Of a DNA stretch of 64,000 nt, positions 7,670 to 64,000 are shown one piece after another. The DNA is from an uncultured Duodenibacillus sp. (GTDB lineage Bacteria > Pseudomonadota > Gammaproteobacteria > Burkholderiales > Burkholderiaceae_F). The position numbers were made by a program, and so were the translations under genes. The stretch is taken from the NCBI GenBank assembly GCA_944390745.1, contig CALXQK010000012.1:343-64342 (forward strand), given 5' to 3'. Numbering within the stretch: the stretch's first letter is position 1; each line of letters begins with the position of its first letter. A model generated the notes under the pieces. It made no database searches. It saw nothing but the letters and a program-made list of their open reading frames with translations, and had not been told where the DNA came from.

Positions 7670-8020
7670 CCGAGCCGGCGGCGCGGGCGCCCCGAAACTG
7701 AAGAAAATTTGCAACACCCCGGGAGCGCCCCGCACCTGCGGCCGCCCGCGGTGCCGCCAGCGTCAAGCAAGGCGCAAGCGATTGATTATTCAGCGCTTTT
7801 TCTCAATCACGCACCACCAGCCCCGGACCGGGCGCCCGTCCTGCGCCCCATCGCCCGGAGCCGGAGAATGCCGCCGCCGGCAGTGTTTCTATAATGGCGG
7901 ATCTGAAAGCCAGCGAATGAAGACCTGCGCCGCCGCGCCGGGATTCGAACCCCTGCCGCCGGGCGCTTCTTTCGCGCGCCGTCCTGTTTCTCCCAGTCAA
8001 GAAAGCCAAGGAAGCCTGTC

Positions 8021-9292
8021 ATGAAGACTTATGAGTTCGCCTACGGGCACTCGAGCAAGAAATTCAATCTCGACGAAGAGCTCGTCATCAAGGAGGTGCG
8101 CACGCAGCCCTTCCCGGTGATGACCGACATCAAGTCGGGCGTGCTCGAAGCCATCTACAACCCGATCGGATGCGAGCCGATCGACAAGATCATCAAGCCC
8201 GGCGATACCGTTGCCTTCATCTGCAACGACCCCACGCGCGTGGCCAACAGCTACGACTTCATGCCGGTGCTCGTCAATGAGATGAACCACCTCGGCGTCA
8301 AGGACGAGGACATGCGCATCGTCTTCTCGCTCGGCACGCACCGCGACATGCCCCATGAGGAGATGGTCGCCTCCGTGGGCGAGGAGGTCGCCTCGCGCAT
8401 CAAGATGTACAACAGCACGGCCACCAAGACCGAGGACTTCGAGTACTTCGGCACGACGAGCCGCGGCACGCCCGTGTGGATCAACAAGCTGCTGTGCGAC
8501 GTCGACCACATCATCCTCACCGGCACCATCGTGCACCACTACTTCTCGGGCTACGGCGGCGGCCGCAAGGCCATTCTGCCCGGTTGCGCGGCCATGGAGA
8601 CCGTGCGCCGCAACCACAGCTGGATGCTCGATGACAACGCCGCCCTCGGCCGCACCGTCGGCAACCCCGTTTACGAGGACCAGATGGAGGGCGTGGCGCT
8701 CTTTGCCAAGGGCCGCTCGCTCTTTTTGTTCAACGCCATTCTCAATGCGCACCACGAGTTCCTGCGCATGTTTGCCGGCGACTACATCGCCGCGCACAAG
8801 GAGGCCTGCAAGTTCGTCGACCAGGCCTACGGCTGCGTCATCCCCGAGGAGGCCGATCTCGTGATCGCCTCCTGCGGCGGCTACCCCAAGGACATCAACG
8901 TCTATCAGATGCAGAAGACGATGGACAACGCGGCCTGCGCCGTCAAGAAGGGCGGCGTGGTGATTCTTCTGGCTGAATGCGAGGAGGGCTCCGGCTCCAA
9001 GCTTCTTGAGGAGACCTTCAAGCGCCTGCACACGCCCGAGGAAATCAAGGCCGAGCTGCAGGCCAACTTCCAGATCGGCGCCAACAAGGCCTTTGCCGTG
9101 GCGCGCCCCATCTCGAAGGCCCGCTACATCCTGGTGACGGGACTTGACCGAGACATGGCCCGCTCGATGCTCTTTACGGGCGCCGTGGACACGGTCGAGG
9201 AGGCGCTTGAGCTTGCCAAGCCCTACCTGCCCGAAAAGCCCACCATCATCCTCATGCCCGAGGGCAGCCTCACCGTTCCGCGCGTCGAATAG
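8021..9292 (+). CDS. larA: LarA-family nickel-pincer-nucleotide-dependent 2-hydroxyacid racemase/epimerase (lactate racemase-like; substrate unknown)
   Basis: 423-aa ORF with a DUF2088-type N-terminus. 'LGTHRDM' and 'HHYFSGYGGGRKAILPG ... RRNHSW' fit the His/Lys/His constellation of LarA. larB and larC lie 1.3 kb downstream. Confidence 0.75.
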   Translation: MKTYEFAYGHSSKKFNLDEELVIKEVRTQPFPVMTDIKSGVLEAIYNPIGCEPIDKIIKPGDTVAFICNDPTRVANSYDFMPVLVNEMNHLGVKDEDMRIVFSLGTHRDMPHEEMVASVGEEVASRIKMYNSTATKTEDFEYFGTTSRGTPVWINKLLCDVDHIILTGTIVHHYFSGYGGGRKAILPGCAAMETVRRNHSWMLDDNAALGRTVGNPVYEDQMEGVALFAKGRSLFLFNAILNAHHEFLRMFAGDYIAAHKEACKFVDQAYGCVIPEEADLVIASCGGYPKDINVYQMQKTMDNAACAVKKGGVVILLAECEEGSGSKLLEETFKRLHTPEEIKAELQANFQIGANKAFAVARPISKARYILVTGLDRDMARSMLFTGAVDTVEEALELAKPYLPEKPTIILMPEGSLTVPRVE

Positions 9293-9434
9293 CGCTCCCC
9301 TGGCCCGGGGATTCTCCCCGGGTCCATAGGAAAAACGGCCGCATCAAGACATCCCCGGAAGGCGAGGCGCCCTCCGGGGATGCTTCATCTCGACGCTCTT
9401 GCTCCTTGTTCGGACACCAGGGCGCCTCAGGCAG

Positions 9435-10289
9435 TCACGGCGCTGCCGGCCGCAGGCAGACGCTGTATTGTCGGCCGGTTTCTGTTGACGCTCCGCCGCT
9501 GCCGTGCGGATTGCCGTCAATGAGGCTGATGTGTCTGGCGCGGTTTTTTGCATATGGCGAGAGGCCCGCCCAGTAGCGCTCGGAGACCTTCCAACCCGCG
9601 GCAAGCGCTGCGCCGTAGGCTTGCGGCAGCTTGTTGTAGCGGCCCTTCTGAGCGATCGTCTGCAAATCAGCCGCGCGCGGCATCGAGGCGTTTTACCCCT
9701 GGCAGAAGGCGAGGTGCTCCCTGTAGGAAACCGGGGTCTCGCCGGGCTTTGAAAACCGCGACAGCGGTCCCCTGCCGAACTCCAGGTCCGTGCATGCACT
9801 GCCGCGCACGCCGTCGCTCATGACTGAGGCGCAGACCGTGACGGTGCGCTCGCCCAAAACATCGAAAAGCCGGGCCGAGGCATCGCCGTCCTCGTTTGCG
9901 TGCGTCCAAAAGGCTTCGACGGGCGTCGTACGGCCGGAGACAGGCGCCGACCAGGACAGGCCGGAGGTCATCCTCTCCCAGCCGGGCGCCACCGATCCGT
10001 GGTTGCGGCTCTCACGCACTTCCCAGACAATCTCAAGATTGCGTCCCCTGCCTTGATGCGGCGAGAGATTCAGGGACTGCCCCCGGGGCGAGGCGTCCTT
10101 CACGTGAGCCGTCATCAGGCAGGAGGCAAAGCCCGCCGCCTTGAAGTCCTGCGTCTTGCCGCACTGCGCATCAATCTCAAGCCGCACCCTTGTCTGGGGC
10201 GTGCTCATGCCGGGCATGGCCTCGACGGCGGACGCCGAACACGCAAGCAGACAGAAAAGCGGCAGACAATGCATGAAGGGTCGGGACAT
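9435..10289 (-). pseudogene. Secreted/lipoprotein-like DUF1566 (Lcl C-terminal domain) protein interrupted by an in-frame TAA
   Basis: The 198-aa ORF (9693-10289; signal-like 'MSRPFMHCLPLFCLLACSASA') ends '...YREHLAFCQG' at TAA 9693-9695. The 82-aa ORF 9435-9683 is in the same frame four codons later. It continues the DUF1566 pattern ('MPRAADLQ...', 'YWAG', 'SLIDGN', terminal 'YSVCLR'). Confidence 0.45.
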
Positions 10290-24622: not shown

Positions 24623-27304
24623 ATGGAAATGTCCGCGATCAATCGCCGCAGCTTTCTGAAGGCGACGGCCGTGACCGGCGTCGCGGCGGCTCTGAGCGAG
24701 TCGCTGCCGGGCGGCCTCGTTGAGGATGCCCGCGCCGCTGCGGAAAAGCCTGCGGCCAAGGACGAGACCAAGATCGTCAAGACCTGCTGCCGCGCCTGCA
24801 TTCACAACTGCGGCGTGCTCGCGCACGTCAGAAACGGCCGCGTCGTCAAGCTCGAGGGCGACCCCGACTACCCGATGAGCAAGGGCGCCATGTGCGCCAA
24901 GGGCCTGGCCGGCATCTCGGCACTCTATCACCCCAACCGCAACAAGTACCCGCTCATCCGCGCCGGAAAGCGCGGCGAGAACAAGTGGAAGCGCATCACT
25001 TGGAAGGAAGCCATCGACATCATCGCCAAGAAGCTCATGGACACCCGCGCCAAGTACGGCGCCGAGGCCGTCATGGTGTCGACGGGCGGCGGCGGCAACC
25101 CGGCCTTCCGCGGCGTCTCGCGCTTCTGCAACGCCTTCGGCACGCCGAACTTCTACGAACCGGGCTGCGCGCAGTGCTGGCTGCCCCGCACGCTCACGTA
25201 CGACCTGATGTACGGCGGCCCGGGCCCGAGCATCGCCGACGAGCAGTGCCGCGAGATCTACAACCCCGACACCAAGATCAAGACCATCGTGCTCTGGGGC
25301 ACGGACGCAAGCTACAGCAACCCCGCCGGCGGCGGACGCGCGCTCGTTGAGCTGCGCGCCAAGGGCGTCAAGACCGTCTCGATCGACCCGCGCTTTGTGC
25401 CCGACGCCGCGCGCGCCGACGTGTGGCTGCCGATCCGCCCGGGCACCGACGTGGCGCTGATGCTCACCTGGATTCGCTACATCATCGACCGCAAGATCTA
25501 CGACCGCGACTTTGTGCTGCGCTGGACGAACCTGCCCTTCCTCGTCAACACCAAGACGAAGATGATCTACATGGCCAGCGAGGTCGATCCCAAGGCCGAT
25601 CCCAAGACCCCGATGGTCTGGGACGCCAAGACGAAGTCGGCCAAGCCCCTGCCCTATCCCTGGGACGACAATCTCGATCCGGCTCTCGAGGGCGCCTTCA
25701 CGATCAACGGCGTCGAGTACAAGACGGGCTTTACGCTTCTGAAGGAGCGCGCCGAGCCCTGGACGCTTGAAAAGGGCGCCGAGGTCTGCTGGCTTGACGC
25801 CAAGAAAATTGAGGAGGCCATCAAGCTCTACGCCGACGGTCCCTCGGGCATCTCCCTGGGCGTCGCCACCGACCAGAGCCCCAACTCCGTGCAGGCCGCC
25901 ATGGGCGTGTGCCTCATCGAGTCGCTGATGGGCAATGTCGAGAAGCCCGGCAACTTCATGCAGCGCAACCCGACGAGCAACGTCGTGCCCTCGGGCAGTC
26001 TTGCCACCCGCTGCTCCTACCTGCTGCCCAAGGGCCAGCTCAAGAAGCGCATCGGCTCCAACGAGCACAAGGGCCTCATGCAGTGGGACGCCGCGCAGCC
26101 CTCGGCGCTTCTCAACGCCATCCTCACCGGCAAGCCCTACCCGATCAAGGTCTGGCTGGAGCGCTCGGGCAACAAGTTCGTCGTCAACGCCAACGCCGGC
26201 TCCTGGGTGGCGGCCTTCGACAAGCTCGACTTCGTGATGCACATGTACATGTACCCGACCTCGTTCTCGGCCTACGCGGACATGCTGCTGCCCGCCACCG
26301 AGTGGCTTGAGACGAACATGCTCGTCGAGTGCATGAACACCGTCTTCGCCCGCCAGGCGGTCACCCACCTGTGGGAGACCGAGGACGAGACGCTCATGTG
26401 GTCGAAGGTGATCAAGAAGTGCGCCGAGCTCGGCAACGAGAACTGCAAGCGCGCCTGCGATCCGAAGTTCATGAAGGACGACCTCGCCTACTGGGATTCG
26501 ATGGAGGAGCTGCTCGACCAGCGTCTGGCCCGCATCGGCCTCACCTGGAAGGAGCTGCTTGCCAAGAACGGCCCCGTGGAGTACATGCCCTACGAGAAGT
26601 GGAACCAGTACTACGTCTACAAGAAGGTCGATCCGAAGACGGGGCTGCCTCAGGGCTTCCGCACGCCCTCAAGAAAGCTCGAGCTCTACGGCGAGCGCTT
26701 CATCAAGCTCGGCCGCACGGGCGAGCCCTATGCGCTCGACGAGGTTCCGCCCGTTGAGAAGGACTACGATCCGCTGCCCTACTACCTCGAGCCCAGCGAG
26801 AGTCCCAACGATCCGAAGGTCGCCGGAGAATATCCGCTCACCATGACCAACGGTCGTCTGCCCATTTACCACCACGGCACGCTGCGCAACGTTCCGTACC
26901 TGCGCGAGATCATGCCCACGGCCGAAATCTGGATCAACCCCGAAACGGCCGCCAAGAACGGCATCGCCCAGAACGACTGGGTCTGGGTTGAGTCTCCGCG
27001 CGGCAAGATCCGCGCACGCGCGCGCCTTACCGAGAGCATGAACCCGCGCGTGGTCTACATGGAGCGCTTCTGGAACCCCGAGACGCTCAACACGAAGACC
27101 CACGGCTGGCAGGAGGAGAACGTCAACGTTCTCTCCAAGAACACGCCGCCCTTCAACGACGTTGTGGGCACCTACACGCTGCGCGGCTACCAGGTGAAGA
27201 TCTACAAGGCCGACGGCGCCCCCGAGGGCGTCTGGACCAAGCCCGAGGATTTCAAGCCGTGGATGCCTCAGCCCTCGGATCCGACCAAGAATGTGGAGTT
27301 CTAA
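24623..27304 (+). CDS. Periplasmic molybdopterin (bis-MGD, DMSO-reductase superfamily) oxidoreductase, catalytic subunit; substrate unknown
   Basis: Tat signal 'MEMSAINRRSFLKATAVTGVAAA'. N-terminal FS0 motif C-X2-C-X3-C-X27-C ('CCRACIHNCG...GAMCAKG'). 893 aa. SD AGGAGA lies 8 nt upstream of the ATG. Confidence 0.85.
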   Translation: MEMSAINRRSFLKATAVTGVAAALSESLPGGLVEDARAAAEKPAAKDETKIVKTCCRACIHNCGVLAHVRNGRVVKLEGDPDYPMSKGAMCAKGLAGISALYHPNRNKYPLIRAGKRGENKWKRITWKEAIDIIAKKLMDTRAKYGAEAVMVSTGGGGNPAFRGVSRFCNAFGTPNFYEPGCAQCWLPRTLTYDLMYGGPGPSIADEQCREIYNPDTKIKTIVLWGTDASYSNPAGGGRALVELRAKGVKTVSIDPRFVPDAARADVWLPIRPGTDVALMLTWIRYIIDRKIYDRDFVLRWTNLPFLVNTKTKMIYMASEVDPKADPKTPMVWDAKTKSAKPLPYPWDDNLDPALEGAFTINGVEYKTGFTLLKERAEPWTLEKGAEVCWLDAKKIEEAIKLYADGPSGISLGVATDQSPNSVQAAMGVCLIESLMGNVEKPGNFMQRNPTSNVVPSGSLATRCSYLLPKGQLKKRIGSNEHKGLMQWDAAQPSALLNAILTGKPYPIKVWLERSGNKFVVNANAGSWVAAFDKLDFVMHMYMYPTSFSAYADMLLPATEWLETNMLVECMNTVFARQAVTHLWETEDETLMWSKVIKKCAELGNENCKRACDPKFMKDDLAYWDSMEELLDQRLARIGLTWKELLAKNGPVEYMPYEKWNQYYVYKKVDPKTGLPQGFRTPSRKLELYGERFIKLGRTGEPYALDEVPPVEKDYDPLPYYLEPSESPNDPKVAGEYPLTMTNGRLPIYHHGTLRNVPYLREIMPTAEIWINPETAAKNGIAQNDWVWVESPRGKIRARARLTESMNPRVVYMERFWNPETLNTKTHGWQEENVNVLSKNTPPFNDVVGTYTLRGYQVKIYKADGAPEGVWTKPEDFKPWMPQPSDPTKNVEF

Positions 27305-59004: not shown

Positions 59005-60648
59005 TTACTCATGCCGTCCGCAGCCCGGGCCCGGAGCAGCCGGCTGCCGGGCCTCGCCGAGCAGCCCCAGCTTGATGAGGCGGCTGCGCATCGTGTTGGG
59101 ATTCATGCCCGCCAGACGCGCGGCGCCGTGCGCGCCCGAAATGCGCCCCTCGGTCAGATCGAGCAGCCTGCTGAAGTACTGCCGCTGCATCGTCTCGAAA
59201 TCCACGGCCTCAAGGCAGGAGGCCGCCGGCGGCCGCGCCTGCGCCTGCGCCTGCGCTTCACCCTCCGGCGCAGGCGGCGCAGCCTTGATTCGAGCCGCGC
59301 CGGCAGCAGCGTCCGGGGCGGCCCCCTGGGAGCCGTCATCGAGCACAAGCCGCACGCCGTGCGCCGAGCCCTGGGCGCTGAGCCCCGAGCGGATCACGGC
59401 GTTTCTGAGCTCGCGCACATTGCCCGGCCAGCGCCAGGCGCGCGCATCGGCCAGCAGCGCCGGCACGAAGTTCTCGGGCAGCGGCACGTGAAAGCGCTCC
59501 TTGACCTCCTGGGCAAACAGCGCGATCAGCGGCTCGAGATCCTCCGGGCGCTCCCGCAGCGGAGGAATGTGCAGCCGCAGCACGTTGAGGCGGTAGTACA
59601 GATCGAGTCGAAAGAGCTTCTTGTCGACCAGCTCCGAAAGACTGCGGTTGGTGGCCGAGATGATGCGCACGTTGATCGGAATCTCCACCGTGCCGCCCAC
59701 GCGTCGAATGGCCTGGTTCTGCAGCACGTGCAGCAGCTTGCCCTGCATGGCAAGCGGCAGCTCGCCGATTTCATCAAGAAAGATCGTCCCGCCGTCGGCC
59801 TCCTCAAAAAGGCCCCGGCGCATGCGCCGCGCGTCGGTAAAGGCGCCCGCCTCATAGCCGAAGAGCTCGGCCTCGATGAGCGCCTCGGGGATCGCCGCGC
59901 AGTTGACGCGCACAAAGGGCCGCATGGCGCGCGAGGACATGTTGTGAATCGCGGTGGCAAGCACCTCCTTGCCGGTGCCCGACTCGCCCGTGATGAGCAC
60001 CGGCACCGGGTAGCCCGCCGCCTGCTTGATGAGCGGGGCGAGCATCCGCATGGAGGGCGAGCGGCGCACGAGCTCGGCCAGAGGCGAGCTCTTGGCCAGG
60101 GCAAGCGTCTGCATCAGCTCCCTGTTGATGCTCTCAATCCTGCGGCTGCGCCGGTCCAGCCGGATGCCCAGCGCAAAGCCCACCTGCAACGACAGCAGCG
60201 TCCGAAGCCAGGACACGGCCCGCGCCTCCCGGTCATGGAATGCCCCGGGTCTCGTGCTGTAGAAGCACACGACGCCGAGGTGGCGCTCCTCAATCTGCAG
60301 CGAGATCAGAATGAAGCTGCGGATGCCTGCAATGACCTTTCCGGCTGCCGTGCGCGTAAAGGGATCCTGCGCGATGTCCTCAACCACCGTGACGCCGTCC
60401 GGGTGCGTCGCCGGCAGCGGCCGCACCCCCGCGGGAACGGCCGCGACGTCGCTGAGCTCCCGGGCGTCCCGGCGCGTGGCATGCGCAAGAAACCACACCT
60501 CGGAGGTCTCGGCAACAAACGTATTGGCAAAGACCCCCTCGGCCGGGAATTCGTCTCCGAGGGCCGCCAGCCCCTTTTGCAGCGCCTGCGGCAGCAAGAG
60601 CGTGCTTGAAAACGCCGACGCCACGGCCCACCGATCCACCCAGACCAT
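59005..60648 (-). CDS. Sigma-54-dependent transcriptional activator (GAF sensor + AAA+ + Fis-type HTH)
   Basis: 'ITGESGTGKEVLA' (Walker A), 'GAFTDA' (variant GAFTGA), 'GGTIFLDEIGE' (Walker B), 'WPGNVRELRN'. C-terminal HTH 'GAARLAGMNPNTMRSRLIKLG'. I prefer the ATG at 60648, with AGGAGG upstream. Confidence 0.85.
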   Translation of the reverse strand: MVWVDRWAVASAFSSTLLLPQALQKGLAALGDEFPAEGVFANTFVAETSEVWFLAHATRRDARELSDVAAVPAGVRPLPATHPDGVTVVEDIAQDPFTRTAAGKVIAGIRSFILISLQIEERHLGVVCFYSTRPGAFHDREARAVSWLRTLLSLQVGFALGIRLDRRSRRIESINRELMQTLALAKSSPLAELVRRSPSMRMLAPLIKQAAGYPVPVLITGESGTGKEVLATAIHNMSSRAMRPFVRVNCAAIPEALIEAELFGYEAGAFTDARRMRRGLFEEADGGTIFLDEIGELPLAMQGKLLHVLQNQAIRRVGGTVEIPINVRIISATNRSLSELVDKKLFRLDLYYRLNVLRLHIPPLRERPEDLEPLIALFAQEVKERFHVPLPENFVPALLADARAWRWPGNVRELRNAVIRSGLSAQGSAHGVRLVLDDGSQGAAPDAAAGAARIKAAPPAPEGEAQAQAQARPPAASCLEAVDFETMQRQYFSRLLDLTEGRISGAHGAARLAGMNPNTMRSRLIKLGLLGEARQPAAPGPGCGRHE

Positions 60649-60692
60649 CCCTTCCCTCCTTTTTCCCAACCGCGCAAAGTCCCTGCAATTTA

Positions 60693-60760
60693 CGAAATAT
60701 CGAAAAGCTCCCGACCAGAGAAAAAATAACGATATTTCGCCAATTTTTCACGAAATATCG
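60693..60760. promoter_or_regulatory. Three copies of a 10-mer (candidate upstream activator sequences for the sigma-54 activator)
   Basis: CGAAATATCG at 60693-60702 and 60751-60760, and its reverse complement CGATATTTCG at 60730-60739. They lie 110-180 bp upstream of the -24/-12 element. Confidence 0.4.
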
Positions 60761-60872
60761 TGTTTCTGTTTTCGTACAACCCGGCACAGCCTCTTCAAAA
60801 GGGCCGGCGCGCCCGCCTGCGCAGTCTGAAGCATTTCTTAACCAGATGGGTTTTTATTCGTTTTTTGAATTC

Positions 60873-60888
60873 TGGCACGCATTTTGCA
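60873..60888 (+). promoter_or_regulatory. Sigma-54 (RpoN) -24/-12 promoter
   Basis: TGGCAC-GCATT-TTGCA matches the TGGCAC-N5-TTGCW consensus exactly. It lies about 80 nt upstream of the ATG at 60970 and next to a divergent sigma-54 activator gene. Confidence 0.7.
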
Positions 60889-60969
60889 TCCTGAAAAGAA
60901 ACCTCGCCTCAATGGCGAGGGCCGGCCTGCGCCGGAGAAACCCAGCACACCCCTTTGGAGTTCAGATAC

Positions 60970-62481
60970 ATGACACAGACCATCTCGCGCCGCCACCTTC
61001 TTGCCGCCGGCGCAGCGAGCGCCGTTGCAGGCGCCGCGGGCACCGCCTCCGCCGCCCAGGGTAAGCCGAAGTTTGACAAGATTGTCGACATCATCGTCGT
61101 CGGCTCGGGCTTTGCCGGCCTTGCCGCCGCACTCGAGGCGCGTCTTGGCGGCGCCGAGGTGATGCTCCTTGAAAAGATGCCCGCCTTCGGCGGCAACTCC
61201 GCCATCAACGGCGGCGCCTTCTCTGTGGCCGGAAGCCCCCTGCAGAAGAAGTTCGGCATCAAGGACTCGCCCGAGCAGATGCTCGCCGACATGATCCGCT
61301 CCGGCCGCGGCCTCTCGCACGTCGACCTGCTCAAGATGGTGGTCAACGGATCGCTGCCGGCCTACGAGTTCACGCTGCGACACGGCGTCAAGTACAAGGA
61401 CTTCGTACAGCACTTCGGCGGCCACTCCGTGCCGCGCACGCTGCAGACGGTCGAGAGCACCGGCGGCGGCATCACCCGGCCGCTGACGGAGTCCTGCCGC
61501 AAGCACGGCGTCGACCTGCACCTGCGCGCCAAGATGGAGGACTTCGTGCGCGACGAATCCGGCCGCGTGATCGGCCTCGTTGTGCGCGAGCGCTATCTCT
61601 TCCCCAACGAGAAGTCGGGCGTTCTGCAGACCTACGGCGCGCGCCGCGGCGTGATCATGGCCACGGGCGGCTTCTCGCGCAACATCTGGTTCAGAAAGCA
61701 GCAGGATCCCAACCTCGACGAGCGTCTGGACTCGACCAACCATCCCGGCGCCACGGGCGAGGGCATGCTCAAGATGTTTGCCATCGGCGGCGCCCCCGTG
61801 CAGGTCGACCAGATCCAGCTCGGCCCCTGGAGCTCGCCCGACGAGCGCGGCTTCGGCCTTGTCTCGCAGTTCAACACCATCGCCGGCTTCCCCATGGGCA
61901 TCATGGTTGACGTGCGCACCGGCAAGCGCTTCTGCAACGAGCTTGCCGACCGCAAGGAGCGCACCGACGCCATTCTCGGCCAGATGGAAAACGGCAAGCC
62001 CGTCTACCCCGTGTGCTTTACCGACAGCAAGGGCGTGGCCAAGGCCCAGACCCTCAAGAACGGCCTGAAGTACGGCGTCATCAAGCAGTTCAACACGATC
62101 GCCGAGCTCGCCCGCGCCTACGGCATCCCCGTCAAGGGACTCGAGGAGCAGGTCGCGCGCTGGAACCAGATGGTGCGCAGCAAGAAGGACACCGATTACC
62201 ACCGCGCGCTCGACCTGGCCATCGTGCTCGACAAGCCGCCGTTTTACGCCGCGCGCGTCTGGCCCAAGGTGCACTACTGCATGGGCGGCGTGGGCATCAC
62301 GCCCAGAGCCGAGGTCTATGACGTCATGGGCAGGGTGATCCCCGGTCTTTACGCCTGCGGCGAAGTCACCGGCGGCACCCACGGCGCGAGCCGTCTCGGC
62401 GGGTGCGCGATTGCCGACGGCCTCGTGATGGGCCGCGTCGCTGCCGACAACTGCCTCAAGAACAAGCCCGTGACGCTCTAA
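60970..62481 (+). CDS. Tat-exported FAD flavoprotein, flavin subunit of a split flavocytochrome c (fumarate/2-enoate reductase family)
   Basis: 'MTQTISRRHLLAAGAASAVAGAAGTASA' (Tat signal), 'DIIVVGSGFAGLAAALEA', 'GEVTGGTHGASRLGGCA'. The active-site block reads 'HYCMGG' rather than 'HHTMGG'. Confidence 0.8.
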   Translation: MTQTISRRHLLAAGAASAVAGAAGTASAAQGKPKFDKIVDIIVVGSGFAGLAAALEARLGGAEVMLLEKMPAFGGNSAINGGAFSVAGSPLQKKFGIKDSPEQMLADMIRSGRGLSHVDLLKMVVNGSLPAYEFTLRHGVKYKDFVQHFGGHSVPRTLQTVESTGGGITRPLTESCRKHGVDLHLRAKMEDFVRDESGRVIGLVVRERYLFPNEKSGVLQTYGARRGVIMATGGFSRNIWFRKQQDPNLDERLDSTNHPGATGEGMLKMFAIGGAPVQVDQIQLGPWSSPDERGFGLVSQFNTIAGFPMGIMVDVRTGKRFCNELADRKERTDAILGQMENGKPVYPVCFTDSKGVAKAQTLKNGLKYGVIKQFNTIAELARAYGIPVKGLEEQVARWNQMVRSKKDTDYHRALDLAIVLDKPPFYAARVWPKVHYCMGGVGITPRAEVYDVMGRVIPGLYACGEVTGGTHGASRLGGCAIADGLVMGRVAADNCLKNKPVTL

Positions 62482-62519
62482 GCGGTTCGCCTCGAGACTT
62501 TGAAAAGGACGTACGAAAA

Positions 62520-62894
62520 ATGATGAACCCCAAGCACCTCTTTGCTCTTTTCGGTCTTTGCGGCGTTCTTGCCGCGGCCGCGCTGCCGGCCGGCGCCGCA
62601 GGACTGCAGATGTCCAAGCACCACGCCGCCGTCATCAAGGACTGCGCGGTGTGCCACACGCAGGACAACGCCGTTGCCGGCAATGCCTTCGTCGTGCCCG
62701 ACGACAAGGTCTGCATGAGCTGCCACGGCAGCTACGAAGCGCTTGCCAAGAAGACCGAGAATCTCTCCGAACCCAACCCGCACCGCTCGCACCACTACGG
62801 CACGGGACTGTCCTGCACGGCCTGCCACGCCGAGCACAGCCAGCCCAGGGCCTACTGCAACGAGTGCCACGAGTTCAAGTACACGATGCCCTGA
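62520..62894 (+). CDS. Small periplasmic tetrahaem cytochrome c (haem subunit of the split flavocytochrome)
   Basis: ATG at 62520. Signal peptide. CAVCH, CMSCH, CTACH, CNECH within 124 aa. Confidence 0.8.
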   Translation: MMNPKHLFALFGLCGVLAAAALPAGAAGLQMSKHHAAVIKDCAVCHTQDNAVAGNAFVVPDDKVCMSCHGSYEALAKKTENLSEPNPHRSHHYGTGLSCTACHAEHSQPRAYCNECHEFKYTMP

Positions 62895-63019
62895 TTTTTT
62901 CAAGCTGCGGGCATAAAGGGCCCCCTGCAGAGGCCGGTTCCCGGGGCCTCTGCAGCCGGCACCCTTGAGCCCGCGGCTCACAGTCAACGTCAATCAACTC
63001 ACACCAGAGGAAGAAAAGC

Positions 63020-64000
63020 ATGAACAAGTTTCTAAAGGTCACCGCCATGACTGCAGCCATGATTGCCTGCGGCTCGCTCAGCGCGGCCACGATCACGCTC
63101 GACGGCAAGAGCCTCACGATGGAGGATGCCTGGAAGATTGCCAACAACGAGGCTGACGTGGCCATCTCGCCCAAGGCGATGAAGCTGCTCGACGACAGCT
63201 ACAAGCTCGTGATGGCCTCGGCCGCCGCCGGCCAGGCCGTCTACGGCCTCACCACGGGCGTGGGCCTCAACAAGGACCACAAGCTCTTTGACGCCAACGG
63301 CAAGCTCTCCGATGCCGTGATCAAGGCCTCGCGCGACTTCAACTACAACGCGCTGCGCTCGCACTCGGCCGGCGTGGGCAAGATGATGCCCACCAACCTC
63401 GCCCGTCTGTCGATGGTCGTGCGCCTGAACACGCTGCTCGACGGCAAGTCCGGCGCCCAGCCGCGCGTGGCCGAGCTCTACCGCGACATGCTCAACAAGG
63501 GCGTCACGCCGCTCATCCCCTCCGAGGGCTCGATCGGTGAGGCCGACATTCTGCTTGCCTCGCACGTCGGCGCCGTGATGATCGGCGAGTGGAAGGCCGA
63601 GGTGAAGGGCAAGGTCGTCGACGGCAAGACCGCCCTGAAGAACGCCGGCATCAAGCCGCTCGTTCCCGAGGGAAAGGATGCCCTCGCCATCCTGTCGAAC
63701 AACTCGGTGGCCATGGCCTACGCCATTGACGCCGCGCGCAACGCCCGCCAGATCCTCAACGTCACGCCCGTCGTCTACGGCCTCTCGCTTGAGGGCCTCA
63801 ACGGCAACGTCGCCCCGATCCTCCCGCAGACGGTCGGCGCCCGTCCCTTTGAAGGCCTCTCGCAGACCGCCGCTGACCTGCGCAGCGCCCTCAAGGGGTC
63901 CTATCTGTGGAAGGCCGACGACGCCCGTCCGCTGCAGGATCCGCTGTCCTACCGCGTGACCGTCTACGGCCTGTCTGAAGCCCGCCGCGCCCTGAAGGAT
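63020..64000 (+). CDS. Signal-peptide-bearing histidine/phenylalanine ammonia-lyase (HAL/PAL) family homologue lacking the Ala-Ser-Gly MIO triad; partial, continues beyond the window
   Basis: This ORF is not in the ORF track because it has no stop in the window. I translated it by hand: open from the ATG at 63020 to 64000 (327 codons). Family blocks 'VYGLTTGVG', 'NALRSHSAGVG', 'RLNTLLDGKSG', 'LQDPLSYRV'. Where 'GSVGASGDLAPL' is expected it reads 'GSIGEADILLAS'. N-terminal 'MNKFLKVTAMTAAMIACGSLSAA'. Confidence 0.75.
   Translation, partial: MNKFLKVTAMTAAMIACGSLSAATITLDGKSLTMEDAWKIANNEADVAISPKAMKLLDDSYKLVMASAAAGQAVYGLTTGVGLNKDHKLFDANGKLSDAVIKASRDFNYNALRSHSAGVGKMMPTNLARLSMVVRLNTLLDGKSGAQPRVAELYRDMLNKGVTPLIPSEGSIGEADILLASHVGAVMIGEWKAEVKGKVVDGKTALKNAGIKPLVPEGKDALAILSNNSVAMAYAIDAARNARQILNVTPVVYGLSLEGLNGNVAPILPQTVGARPFEGLSQTAADLRSALKGSYLWKADDARPLQDPLSYRVTVYGLSEARRALKD

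Follow-up and report, generated by a model that had tools for sequence, protein, structure and literature searches.

What can a protein of the HAL/PAL family do if it lacks the Ala-Ser-Gly triad from which the MIO cofactor of its relatives is formed, and if it appears to begin with an export signal? The question is raised by the gene at the 3' end of the window, the term used here for the whole stretch of 64,000 nucleotides that was analysed. The family and fold of the encoded protein, the state of its MIO site, the conservation of the catalytic residues, the synteny, the promoter and the residues that mark specificity were computed. Taken together with the published work on relatives, they make it likely that the product of the open reading frame is an ergothionase-type trimethylammonia-lyase, located in the periplasm and working without MIO, which would convert ergothioneine to thiourocanate and trimethylamine, with respiratory reduction of the thiourocanate as the following step. 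The features of the gene are listed below.

63020..64000, + strand: predicted MIO-less trimethylammonia-lyase of the ergothionase type, first 327 of 554 codons
63020..63088, + strand: predicted signal peptide MNKFLKVTAMTAAMIACGSLSAA, most likely of the Sec/signal peptidase I type
63527..63562, + strand: GSIGEADILLAS (codons 170-181), in place of the MIO-forming GS(V/I)GASGDLAPL

Family, fold and MIO site of the lyase

The frame is free of stop codons from the ATG at 63020 (+ strand) to 64000, a length of 327 codons, and AGAGGAAG is located 6-13 nt 5' of the ATG. As the gene extends beyond the window end, residues 328-554 were read from P0001, a protein of 554 amino acids that is 100% identical to the lyase over the 327 in-window residues and whose contig is 99.6% identical to the window across 11 kb. 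Membership of the HAL/PAL fold family, proposed in an earlier sequence-only reading of this DNA, was borne out by the match to Pfam PF00221 (Lyase_aromatic, E 1.5e-80) and by Foldseek, and the family blocks quoted in that reading (VYGLTTGVG, NALRSHSAGVG, RLNTLLDGKSGAQ, LSNNS and LQDPLSYRV) were all found. Alignment of the full frame, via P0001, with the HAL and ergothionase structures placed it closest to the ergothionase of Treponema denticola (6s7j, hereafter Td_ETL). This enzyme was the best match in a sequence search of solved structures (full length, E 8e-76, 36% identity), in which the MIO-dependent HALs scored about 1e-44, and it was also the top Foldseek match (TM 0.90, E 2e-30) of the AF2 model of the lyase (pLDDT 83), the HAL structures, of the same PF00221 fold, giving TM values of 0.84-0.88.

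The homologue set used for the comparisons consists of 83 sequences from 81 loci. Since S. oneidensis is outside the best 80 loci, its proteins SO_3057 and SO_3058 are represented in the comparisons by Shewanella orthologues that have the same residue numbers. A single homologue cluster is found on 526 contigs, and another has 2083 member sequences.

In the alignment to the solved HALs, Glu-Ala is found at the MIO residue and the segment, GSIG-EA-DILL, is without Ser-Gly and one residue shorter than with Ala-Ser-Gly, exactly the replacement and deletion noticed earlier from the letters. The motif G-[ED]-[AG]-D-I occupies the MIO site in 83 of the 83 homologues and X-Ser-Gly in none of them (0/83), nearly all the Gram-negative homologues having an N-terminal extension as well. 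The crystallised ergothionase 6s7j reads SIGEGDI here, its GEGD-I matching the GEAD-I of the lyase. A sequencing or alignment artefact hiding an Ala-Ser-Gly is thus ruled out, because the motif is common to all 83 homologues and to a protein of known crystal structure. With the triad absent and the segment one residue shorter, the earlier claim that MIO cannot be formed by the known route is also upheld.

Y75, H115, Q306, R312, N337 and E465 are invariant in the homologue alignment from Sutterella through T. denticola, and Asn227/228 is kept in a shifted form. In two preprints, the corresponding residues of Swoo_3913 and Td_ETL are assigned as the base (Tyr), the carboxylate ligands (Gln, Arg, Asn) and the imidazole ligands (His, Glu) (bioRxiv 10.1101/2025.08.13.670108, 10.64898/2026.04.22.720169), the roles for the ergothionase being taken second-hand from these preprints.

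Predicted export signal, reductase genes and regulatory region

The first 23 residues include two Lys, a hydrophobic core and S-A-A before TITLDG. The alignment with the ergothionase begins at query residue 25, the 23-residue extension being absent from the cytoplasmic T. denticola enzyme. An n-h-c arrangement is likewise seen in the extensions, 18-29 residues long, of nearly all the Gram-negative homologues, those of Enterococcus having no such extension, and the characterised Shewanella relatives carry leader peptides (bioRxiv 10.1101/2025.08.13.670108, 10.64898/2026.04.22.720169). These features, and the likeness to the studied Shewanella proteins, suggest that the lyase is exported. The sequence-only reading had spoken of a Sec- or lipoprotein-like signal; the signal-like extension stands, given its n-h-c layout and S-A-A, and the lipoprotein reading of 'MIAC' is unlikely, because close orthologues, such as that of S. 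wadsworthensis (locus L004, 82% identity), have Ala or Gly in place of Cys17 while the A-x-A-type site six residues on is kept.

The following features were identified upstream of the lyase.

59005..60648, - strand: sigma-54-dependent transcriptional activator, divergent from the operon (Sigma54_activat, E 3.4e-68)
60693, 60730 (- strand) and 60751, span 60693..60760: three exact copies of CGAAATATCG in alternating orientation, candidate upstream activator sites
60873..60888, + strand: sigma-54 (-24/-12) promoter TGGCACGCATTTTGCA, exact match, 82 nt upstream of the FAD-subunit start codon
60970..62481, + strand: flavocytochrome c FAD subunit, 503 aa (TIGR01813, PF00890), predicted thiourocanate reductase
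62520..62894, + strand: small periplasmic tetraheme cytochrome c, 124 aa (PF14537 Cytochrom_c3_2, E 8.5e-16)
62903..62978, + strand: long G+C-rich hairpin in the cytochrome-lyase spacer (MFE -59.9 kcal/mol, z = -5.1)

In the window, the lyase gene is preceded by genes for an FAD_binding_2 subunit, predicted to be exported, and for a multihaem cytochrome c, and such neighbours are also present in almost all the K-type loci, i.e. those with Lys at the position discussed below; in nearly all of these a cytochrome c homologue is located no more than about 3.7 kb from the lyase. In the related contigs of the Sutterellaceae, a porin gene is present downstream of the lyase.

The FAD subunit carries a twin-arginine signal (SRRHLLAAG), scores 485 bits against TIGR01813 (flavo_cyto_c), matches PF00890 and has the urocanate reductase 6t85 as its best PDB match (E 5e-77). 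Urocanate reductase was rejected as the partner in this operon because Glu177 and Asp388 of UrdA are replaced by Ala and Gln (A83 and Q300) in the FAD subunit. Its residues Q159, W287, F295, T303 and R328 align with Q168, W296, F304, T312 and R337 of the Shewanella sequences from loci L053, L054 and L059. In SO_3058 these form the modelled site of thiourocanate binding and protonation, the thiourocanate specificity of that protein being a modelling prediction only (bioRxiv 10.64898/2026.04.22.720169). The cytochrome has four CXXCH motifs (CAVCH, CMSCH, CTACH and CNECH) and is predicted to be the electron-input subunit of the reductase.

The activator consists of AAA+ Sigma54_activat and AAA_lid_14 domains with a weak match to GAF_2 (a GAF-like N-terminal region), and its start, ATG at 60646-60648 (reverse complement), agrees with the start called in locus L001. 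In most loci a homologue (22-65% identity) is found no further than about 6 kb from the lyase; in those of the Sutterellaceae, Shewanella and Ferrimonas it is next to the operon and divergent from it. The sigma-54 promoter match is exact and single in the window, and TGGCA[CT]-N5-[TC]TGC[AT] occurs upstream of the operon in 39 of the 72 related loci, including Shewanella and Ferrimonas. The three copies of CGAAATATCG occupy a 68-bp part of the intergenic region between the divergent genes, no other match with up to one mismatch being present in the 64 kb, and are candidates for the upstream sites bound by the activator. In S. oneidensis under anaerobic conditions, SO_3057 is reported to be induced about 300-fold by ergothioneine (bioRxiv 10.64898/2026.04.22.720169), with which the promoter and the adjacent activator would agree.

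The hairpin between the cytochrome and lyase genes is possibly an intra-operon element of mRNA stability or attenuation. None of 200 shuffled sequences folds as well, no T-run is present 3' of the hairpin, which was not scored as a terminator, and several Sutterella orthologues also have strong hairpins, of unrelated sequence, in this spacer. No sigma-70 promoter was found in a scan of 60600-64000, no convincing intrinsic terminator between the operon genes and no tRNA in a scan of the whole window.

Substrate and competing explanations

The residue that bears most directly on the substrate is Lys437 of P0001, located beyond the window and read from the 99.6% identical contig, which aligns with Lys384 of Td_ETL. 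In the preprints, Lys384 is described as thiolate-binding and essential, with Asn in its place in Swoo_3913 and Gln in SO_3299, and its equivalent is reported as necessary for ergothionase activity, sufficiency being a separate matter (bioRxiv 10.1101/2025.08.13.670108, 10.64898/2026.04.22.720169). Of the 84 sequences aligned, 67 have Lys at position 437, every close orthologue among them. In the set of 81 loci, these 67 Lys-type lyases adjoin Gln/Thr-type reductases and a separate cytochrome c wherever the neighbours are on the contig, and the 13 Asp-type paralogues adjoin UrdA-like Glu/Asp reductases wherever a reductase of scoreable length is present; a separate Asp-type paralogue beside UrdA-like reductases is also found in the Sutterellaceae.

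Ergothioneine is the 2-thio derivative of N-alpha-trimethyl-histidine. The lyase would be exported by Sec, with cleavage of the signal peptide, presumably after Ala23, and would bind ergothioneine in its exported form. The conserved Tyr75 would take the beta-proton and trimethylamine would depart without an electrophilic cofactor, since the quaternary ammonium group leaves readily as it is, to give thiourocanate and trimethylamine. The co-transcribed flavocytochrome c, comprising the TAT-exported FAD subunit and the tetraheme cytochrome c, would then reduce the double bond of thiourocanate with electrons from the respiratory chain. A lyase feeding a periplasmic reductase in this manner would turn ergothioneine into the source of a terminal electron acceptor, with every step located in the periplasm. 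The divergent enhancer-binding protein would drive expression from the sigma-54 promoter, presumably when the substrate is present, and the product of the downstream porin gene would probably allow entry through the outer membrane. SO_3057 is an experimentally shown ergothionase and supports anaerobic growth on ergothioneine (bioRxiv 10.64898/2026.04.22.720169).

There is a small, though appreciable, chance that an enzyme of the same class and respiratory logic acts here on another N-alpha-trimethylated histidine derivative, such as hercynine (histidine betaine), N-pi-methyl histidine betaine, selenoneine or an ovothiol-like betaine, with the reductase acting on the matching urocanate analogue. 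Sharply different substrates are indeed used by characterised members of similar sequence, i.e. histidine betaine by Swoo_3913, N-pi-methyl histidine betaine by SO_3299 and ergothioneine by SO_3057 (bioRxiv 10.1101/2025.08.13.670108, 10.64898/2026.04.22.720169), the identity to the SO_3057-like proteins is only 55% and the Lys marker is one residue. However, both the non-thiol enzymes are without this Lys, having Asn and Gln, while it is kept in the protein studied here and in its orthologues, and the reductase has the Gln/Thr/Trp/Phe set associated with thiourocanate and lacks the Glu/Asp pair of the urocanate reductases. The Asp-type paralogue of the Sutterellaceae is, moreover, consistent with a division of labour between substrates.

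Two suggestions had been made from the sequence, a non-catalytic binding or sensor protein and an enzyme with different chemistry, and it is the latter that is supported, with the catalytic residues kept and an ergothionase as the closest structure. That a dead HAL has turned into a periplasmic ligand-binding or sensor protein is very improbable. A classical HAL would be inactive once its MIO triad was lost, the protein is probably exported and its gene is near that of a regulator, but the idea fails because the catalytic and substrate-binding residues common to HAL and ergothionase are all invariant, the Tyr base and every carboxylate and imidazole ligand being kept down to 36% identity. Activity has, in addition, been measured for the nearest relatives that share the motif, with kcat of 18-64 per s (bioRxiv 10.1101/2025.08.13.670108, 10.64898/2026.04.22.720169), and the lyase gene is part of the reductase operon rather than placed with the regulator.

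A genuine histidine or aromatic ammonia-lyase, expelling ammonia without MIO and supplying urocanate or cinnamate to the reductase, is hardly credible in spite of the database names of the close homologues ('aromatic amino acid ammonia-lyase', 'histidine ammonia-lyase') and the conserved HAL substrate-binding residues, since Swoo_3913, which also has the MIO-less motif, was inactive as an ammonia-lyase on histidine and on the other proteinogenic amino acids tested, a set without cysteine (bioRxiv 10.1101/2025.08.13.670108, 10.64898/2026.04.22.720169), SO_3299 converted the tested histidine derivatives only after further methylation, the partner reductase is without the urocanate signature, and the 327-residue fragment scores 179 bits against the NCBIfam equivalog hutH (cut-off 539) and 113 against PAL (cut-off 519), a shortfall due in part to the truncation of the fragment scored.

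Relation to known systems and significance

The periplasmic ergothionase proposed here has described counterparts, and the impression given by the sequence-only reading that no described subfamily was involved is not sustained. The structure of the MIO-less ergothionase 6s7j was released in 2019, and periplasmic trimethylammonia-lyases encoded in operons with flavocytochrome c are reported from Shewanella in two preprints (bioRxiv 10.1101/2025.08.13.670108, 10.64898/2026.04.22.720169), the second of which names Sutterella among the carriers. Ergothioneine, hercynine and ammonia-lyase are not mentioned in an electron-acceptor screen of S. wadsworthensis (bioRxiv 10.1101/2022.12.26.521950), nor are Sutterella and periplasmic enzymes in a 2026 review on ergothioneine and TMAO. 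A megablast search with the module of Escherichia sp. MOD1-EC7003 against 5,426 complete E. coli genomes gave no match.

The module described here shares with SO_3057 and SO_3056/SO_3058 of S. oneidensis a MIO-less PF00221 lyase with a leader peptide (predicted in the present case) and the Lys reported to bind the thiolate, a single operon with the FAD_binding_2 subunit and multihaem cytochrome c, and the Gln/Trp/Phe/Thr/Arg reductase site; a sigma-54 activator and promoter adjoin the lyase operon in the Shewanella orthologues as well. It differs in that its lyase is about 55% identical to the Shewanella Lys-type lyases recovered, which are proxies for SO_3057, that the gene order is FAD-cytochrome-lyase(-porin) rather than the FAD-lyase-cytochrome of the SO_3056-3058 type, and that a porin gene is appended in the Sutterellaceae module. 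The host here is an obligately anaerobic or microaerophilic gut betaproteobacterium, whereas Shewanella is a marine or sediment gammaproteobacterium.

Td_ETL resembles the lyase in the SIGE(G/A)DI that stands in for the MIO segment and in its catalytic residues (Tyr, His, Gln, Arg, Asn, Glu and Lys), but is cytoplasmic, without a signal peptide, catabolic rather than respiratory and 36% identical, the Sutterella protein having about 22 extra residues around positions 352-375. Swoo_3913 is likewise a periplasmic MIO-less lyase that gives its enoate to a periplasmic flavin reductase in anaerobic respiration; it differs in having Asn for Lys, in preferring histidine betaine, in its dependence on Mg2+ and in the absence of an adjacent regulator, and its partner is a single-polypeptide FMN_bind and FAD UrdA with the Glu/Asp urocanate site. 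HutH of Pseudomonas putida (1b8f) has the same fold (TM about 0.87) and the same carboxylate- and imidazole-binding residues, but forms MIO from Ala-Ser-Gly, is cytoplasmic and releases ammonia from histidine in the hut catabolic pathway.

The advance is incremental, because the idea was put forward, and shown in part, in earlier work on Shewanella that also names Sutterella as one of the carriers. The labels 'aromatic amino acid' and 'histidine ammonia-lyase', which such proteins receive from annotation pipelines, would imply a wrong substrate, a wrong product and a wrong cellular location, and the residue at lyase position 437, in combination with the active-site type of the reductase, offers a simple means of sorting such operons by predicted substrate. 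If the proposed reading is true, ergothioneine would join the precursors of respiratory electron acceptors in the human gut, and the module would connect a genus abundant in the gut with the loss of ergothioneine and the release of trimethylamine, two processes of medical interest. More speculatively, the Sutterellaceae, which are common in the human gut, may respire ergothioneine from the diet or the host wholly in the periplasm by means of the porin, the lyase and the thiourocanate reductase, and might thereby be a significant sink for this dietary, cytoprotective antioxidant and a source of trimethylamine and of a thio-analogue of imidazole propionate, with the K/D/V lyase position and the matching reductase site perhaps constituting a readable specificity code for a broader range of betaine-derived acceptors.

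The lyase and its altered MIO site

The lyase reading frame, with AGAGGAAG upstream of its ATG at 63020, runs without a stop to the window end (327 codons). Residues 328-554 lie beyond that end and were taken from P0001, a full-length public homologue of 554 aa, because P0001 is identical to the lyase over all 327 in-window residues and its contig (CAYDAP010000021.1, assembly GCA_964320715.1) shows 99.6% identity with the window over 11 kb. Over this length the two differ by 28 substitutions and, in a neighbouring gene, by an in-frame repeat indel of 18 bp, so the window is regarded as a close strain variant of that contig and not as identical to it; the indel represents three extra GCCTGC units in the window, located at 59233-59250 in the gene for the sigma-54 activator.

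The reading frame matches the Pfam family Lyase_aromatic (PF00221, E 1.5e-80). Codons 170-181 (63527-63562) encode GSIGEADILLAS at the place where enzymes dependent on 4-methylidene-imidazol-5-one (MIO) carry GS(V/I)GASGDLAPL, and HMMER alignment to solved HALs puts Glu-Ala at the MIO position, in a segment that falls short of Ala-Ser-Gly by one residue. The sequence-only reading was correct in observing this feature, which is real: its description of a HAL/PAL-family frame devoid of Ala-Ser-Gly is borne out by the translation, the family match and the HAL alignment; a search for homologues and their alignment revealed an MIO-type X-Ser-Gly triad in none of the 83 lyases compared.

When all PDB sequences were searched, the Treponema denticola ergothionase Td_ETL (6s7j, E 8e-76), aligned end to end, came out far ahead, followed by HALs (E ~1e-44), and the same order was obtained by fold with an AlphaFold2 model (mean pLDDT 83, pTM 0.86), for which 6s7j ranks first (TM 0.90-0.91, E 2e-30) and HALs next. 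The MIO-site segment is SSIGEGDITTLSHIG in Td_ETL and GSIGEADILLASHVG in the window lyase. According to Bertsova et al. 2025 (bioRxiv 10.1101/2025.08.13.670108), ergothionase is a HAL-fold enzyme that takes trimethylamine, not ammonia, off ergothioneine, and does so without MIO because the quaternary ammonium is itself a good leaving group.

Putative export signal and genomic context

The N-terminal 23 residues begin with a basic n-region, followed by a hydrophobic core and then by an S-A-A site immediately ahead of the first conserved strand (TITLDG), at the equivalent of which the cytoplasmic Td_ETL and the Enterococcus homologues begin. An extension of the same build (18-29 residues) occurs in nearly all Gram-negative homologues, those lacking it looking like start-codon miscalls. 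Of the two options in the 'Sec- or lipoprotein-like signal' proposed earlier, the lipoprotein is unlikely: Cys17 could suggest a lipobox, but close orthologues carry Ala or Gly there, which favours cleavage by signal peptidase I. Export to the periplasm is probable, backed by the TAT signal and c-type haems of the putative partners and by the Shewanella work discussed below. The genes directly upstream of the lyase, on the same strand, and the divergent regulator are as follows.

60970-62481, + strand: FAD subunit, 503 aa, twin-arginine signal (TIGR01813 flavocytochrome c, 485 bits; best PDB match urocanate reductase)
62520-62894, + strand: tetraheme cytochrome c, 124 aa, own signal peptide
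59005-60648, - strand: sigma-54-dependent activator, divergent from the operon

The sole match to the sigma-54 -24/-12 consensus in the window is exact (TGGCACGCATTTTGCA, 60873-60888) and is located 82 nt ahead of the FAD gene. In the activator-FAD intergenic region, CGAAATATCG occurs as three exact copies within 68 bp, and nowhere else in the 64 kb; these copies are plausible candidate activator sites. The cytochrome c-lyase spacer holds a very stable hairpin (62903-62978, -59.9 kcal/mol, z -5.1) that is not followed by a T-run; the same spacer contains strong hairpins, unrelated in sequence, in several Sutterella orthologues, and is short and hairpin-free in Parasutterella, Turicimonas and S. 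wadsworthensis. In both the near-identical contig and the closest species representative, the gene after the lyase encodes a Gram-negative porin. A 532-aa frame opposite the activator gene (59011-60609, + strand), with no family match, almost certainly does not represent a gene but a shadow ORF in G+C-rich DNA. Elsewhere in the window, a molybdopterin oxidoreductase with Fe4S4, Molybdopterin and Molydop_binding domains (24623-27304, + strand) is another candidate respiratory reductase, in keeping with reports that Sutterella has large arsenals of reductases.

When a single genome was scanned for each species, the best 80 loci belonged to Sutterella, Parasutterella, Turicimonas, Mesosutterella, Citrobacter, an Escherichia sp., Hafnia, Limnobaculum, Leminorella, Enterobacillus, Shewanella, Ferrimonas and Enterococcus, the closest being a human-gut Sutterella MAG (91% amino-acid identity), so that the window is assigned to a species of Sutterella. 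The lyase adjoins the FAD subunit and cytochrome c in almost all proteobacterial loci, usually with the sigma-54 activator, and in 39 of 72 loci the operon has a sigma-54 promoter element upstream. The Shewanella loci differ in having the order FAD-lyase-cytochrome, as in so_3058-3057-3056. Enterobacterial Lys-type modules (defined below) are ordered lyase-FAD-cytochrome (Escherichia sp. MOD1-EC7003, L037; Citrobacter, L028/L032/L034; Hafnia, L039). The MOD1-EC7003 module gave no megablast match among 5,426 complete E. coli genomes, which is relevant to the old reports that E. coli extracts show ergothionase activity. The loci titled uncultured Ruminococcus sp. UMGS362 (L047, proteins 86% identical to those of the window) and Burkholderia sp. 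(L007) carry Sutterella-like operons, so that these labels probably reflect mis-binning or loose naming.

Characterised relatives and the predicted substrate

The view that no described subfamily was involved is out of date, as the kind was characterised in two Shewanella preprints. Swoo_3913 of Shewanella woodyi, a leader-bearing, MIO-less 'aromatic amino acid ammonia-lyase' whose gene adjoins a urocanate reductase gene, is a histidine-betaine trimethylammonia-lyase that supports anaerobic respiration and showed no activity on histidine or any other amino acid tested (bioRxiv 10.1101/2025.08.13.670108). The same group showed in 2026 (bioRxiv 10.64898/2026.04.22.720169) that S. oneidensis SO_3057, encoded between the two subunit genes of flavocytochrome c SO_3056/3058, is a periplasmic ergothionase induced ~300-fold by ergothioneine under anoxia, that ergothioneine supports anaerobic growth, and that the paralogue SO_3299 uses N-pi-methyl histidine betaine; its Discussion names Sutterella and Turicimonas among genera with such clusters. 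Judged by its sequence, the window lyase is a further member of this kind, the periplasmic MIO-less trimethylammonia-lyases coupled to flavocytochrome c, and its module is predicted to be of the ergothionase/thiourocanate-reductase type.

In the preprints, Td_ETL Lys384, which binds the thiolate and is reported essential, is the discriminating residue; in its column the histidine-betaine enzyme has Asn and SO_3299 has Gln. This position lies beyond the window end, and P0001 has Lys437 there; in 84 aligned sequences it is Lys in 67, Asp in 13 Sutterellaceae paralogues and Val in four Enterococcus proteins without signal peptide. The window FAD subunit carries Q159, W287, F295, T303 and R328 in the columns of Q168, W296, F304, T312 and R337 of Shewanella orthologues (L053, L054, L059), exactly the residues to which thiourocanate binding and protonation by SO_3058 were assigned by modelling (bioRxiv 10.64898/2026.04.22.720169), and the urocanate-binding Glu177 and Asp388 of urocanate reductase (UrdA) are replaced by Ala and Gln. 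Asp-type lyases adjoin UrdA-like reductases retaining Glu, Asp and Arg, some at UrdA numbering (E176, D388, R411), as read where the contig carries a reductase long enough to score. Lyase type thus co-varies with reductase type among loci with neighbouring genes on the contig, Lys-type and Asp-type lyases having differing partners. These markers, those of the reductase derived from modelling, support conversion of ergothioneine to thiourocanate by the window module, the reductase residues lending independent support.

The serious alternative, that the substrate is a different trimethylated histidine derivative, is given a small but appreciable probability. That the lyase is a non-catalytic binder is very unlikely, given that Y75, H115, Q306, R312, N337 and E465 (P0001 numbering; listed roles: Tyr as base, His and Glu as imidazole ligands, Gln, Arg and Asn as carboxylate ligands) are invariant across Sutterella, its relatives and Td_ETL. 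A true ammonia-lyase is slightly less credible still, in view of negative assays for enzymes with the same motif.

Related branches and significance of the module

Sutterellaceae also possess another periplasmic MIO-less lyase, a paralogue (55-59% identical) with Asp at position 437, where the characterised variants have Lys, Asn or Gln. It was found in the following homologous loci.

L003, 2219-3871, - strand: Asp-type paralogue
L030, 995-2629: Asp-type paralogue
L047, 5204-6787: Asp-type paralogue
L020, L029, L031, L033, L035, L040, L045, L046, L048, L055: Asp-type paralogues

The Enterococcus homologues (L024, L025, L038, L074; E. hulanensis, E. malodoratus and relatives; match at 8001-9580, 55-57% identical) have no signal peptide, Val at position 437 and no adjacent flavocytochrome, with a gene for a sigma-54-type AAA+ domain ~3.4 kb upstream; these features suggest a cytoplasmic branch that serves another role.

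The window module is not a novel type of system. Its value lies in putting right the misleading annotation of such lyases and in pointing to the predicted respiration of ergothioneine, with release of trimethylamine, in a common gut genus.
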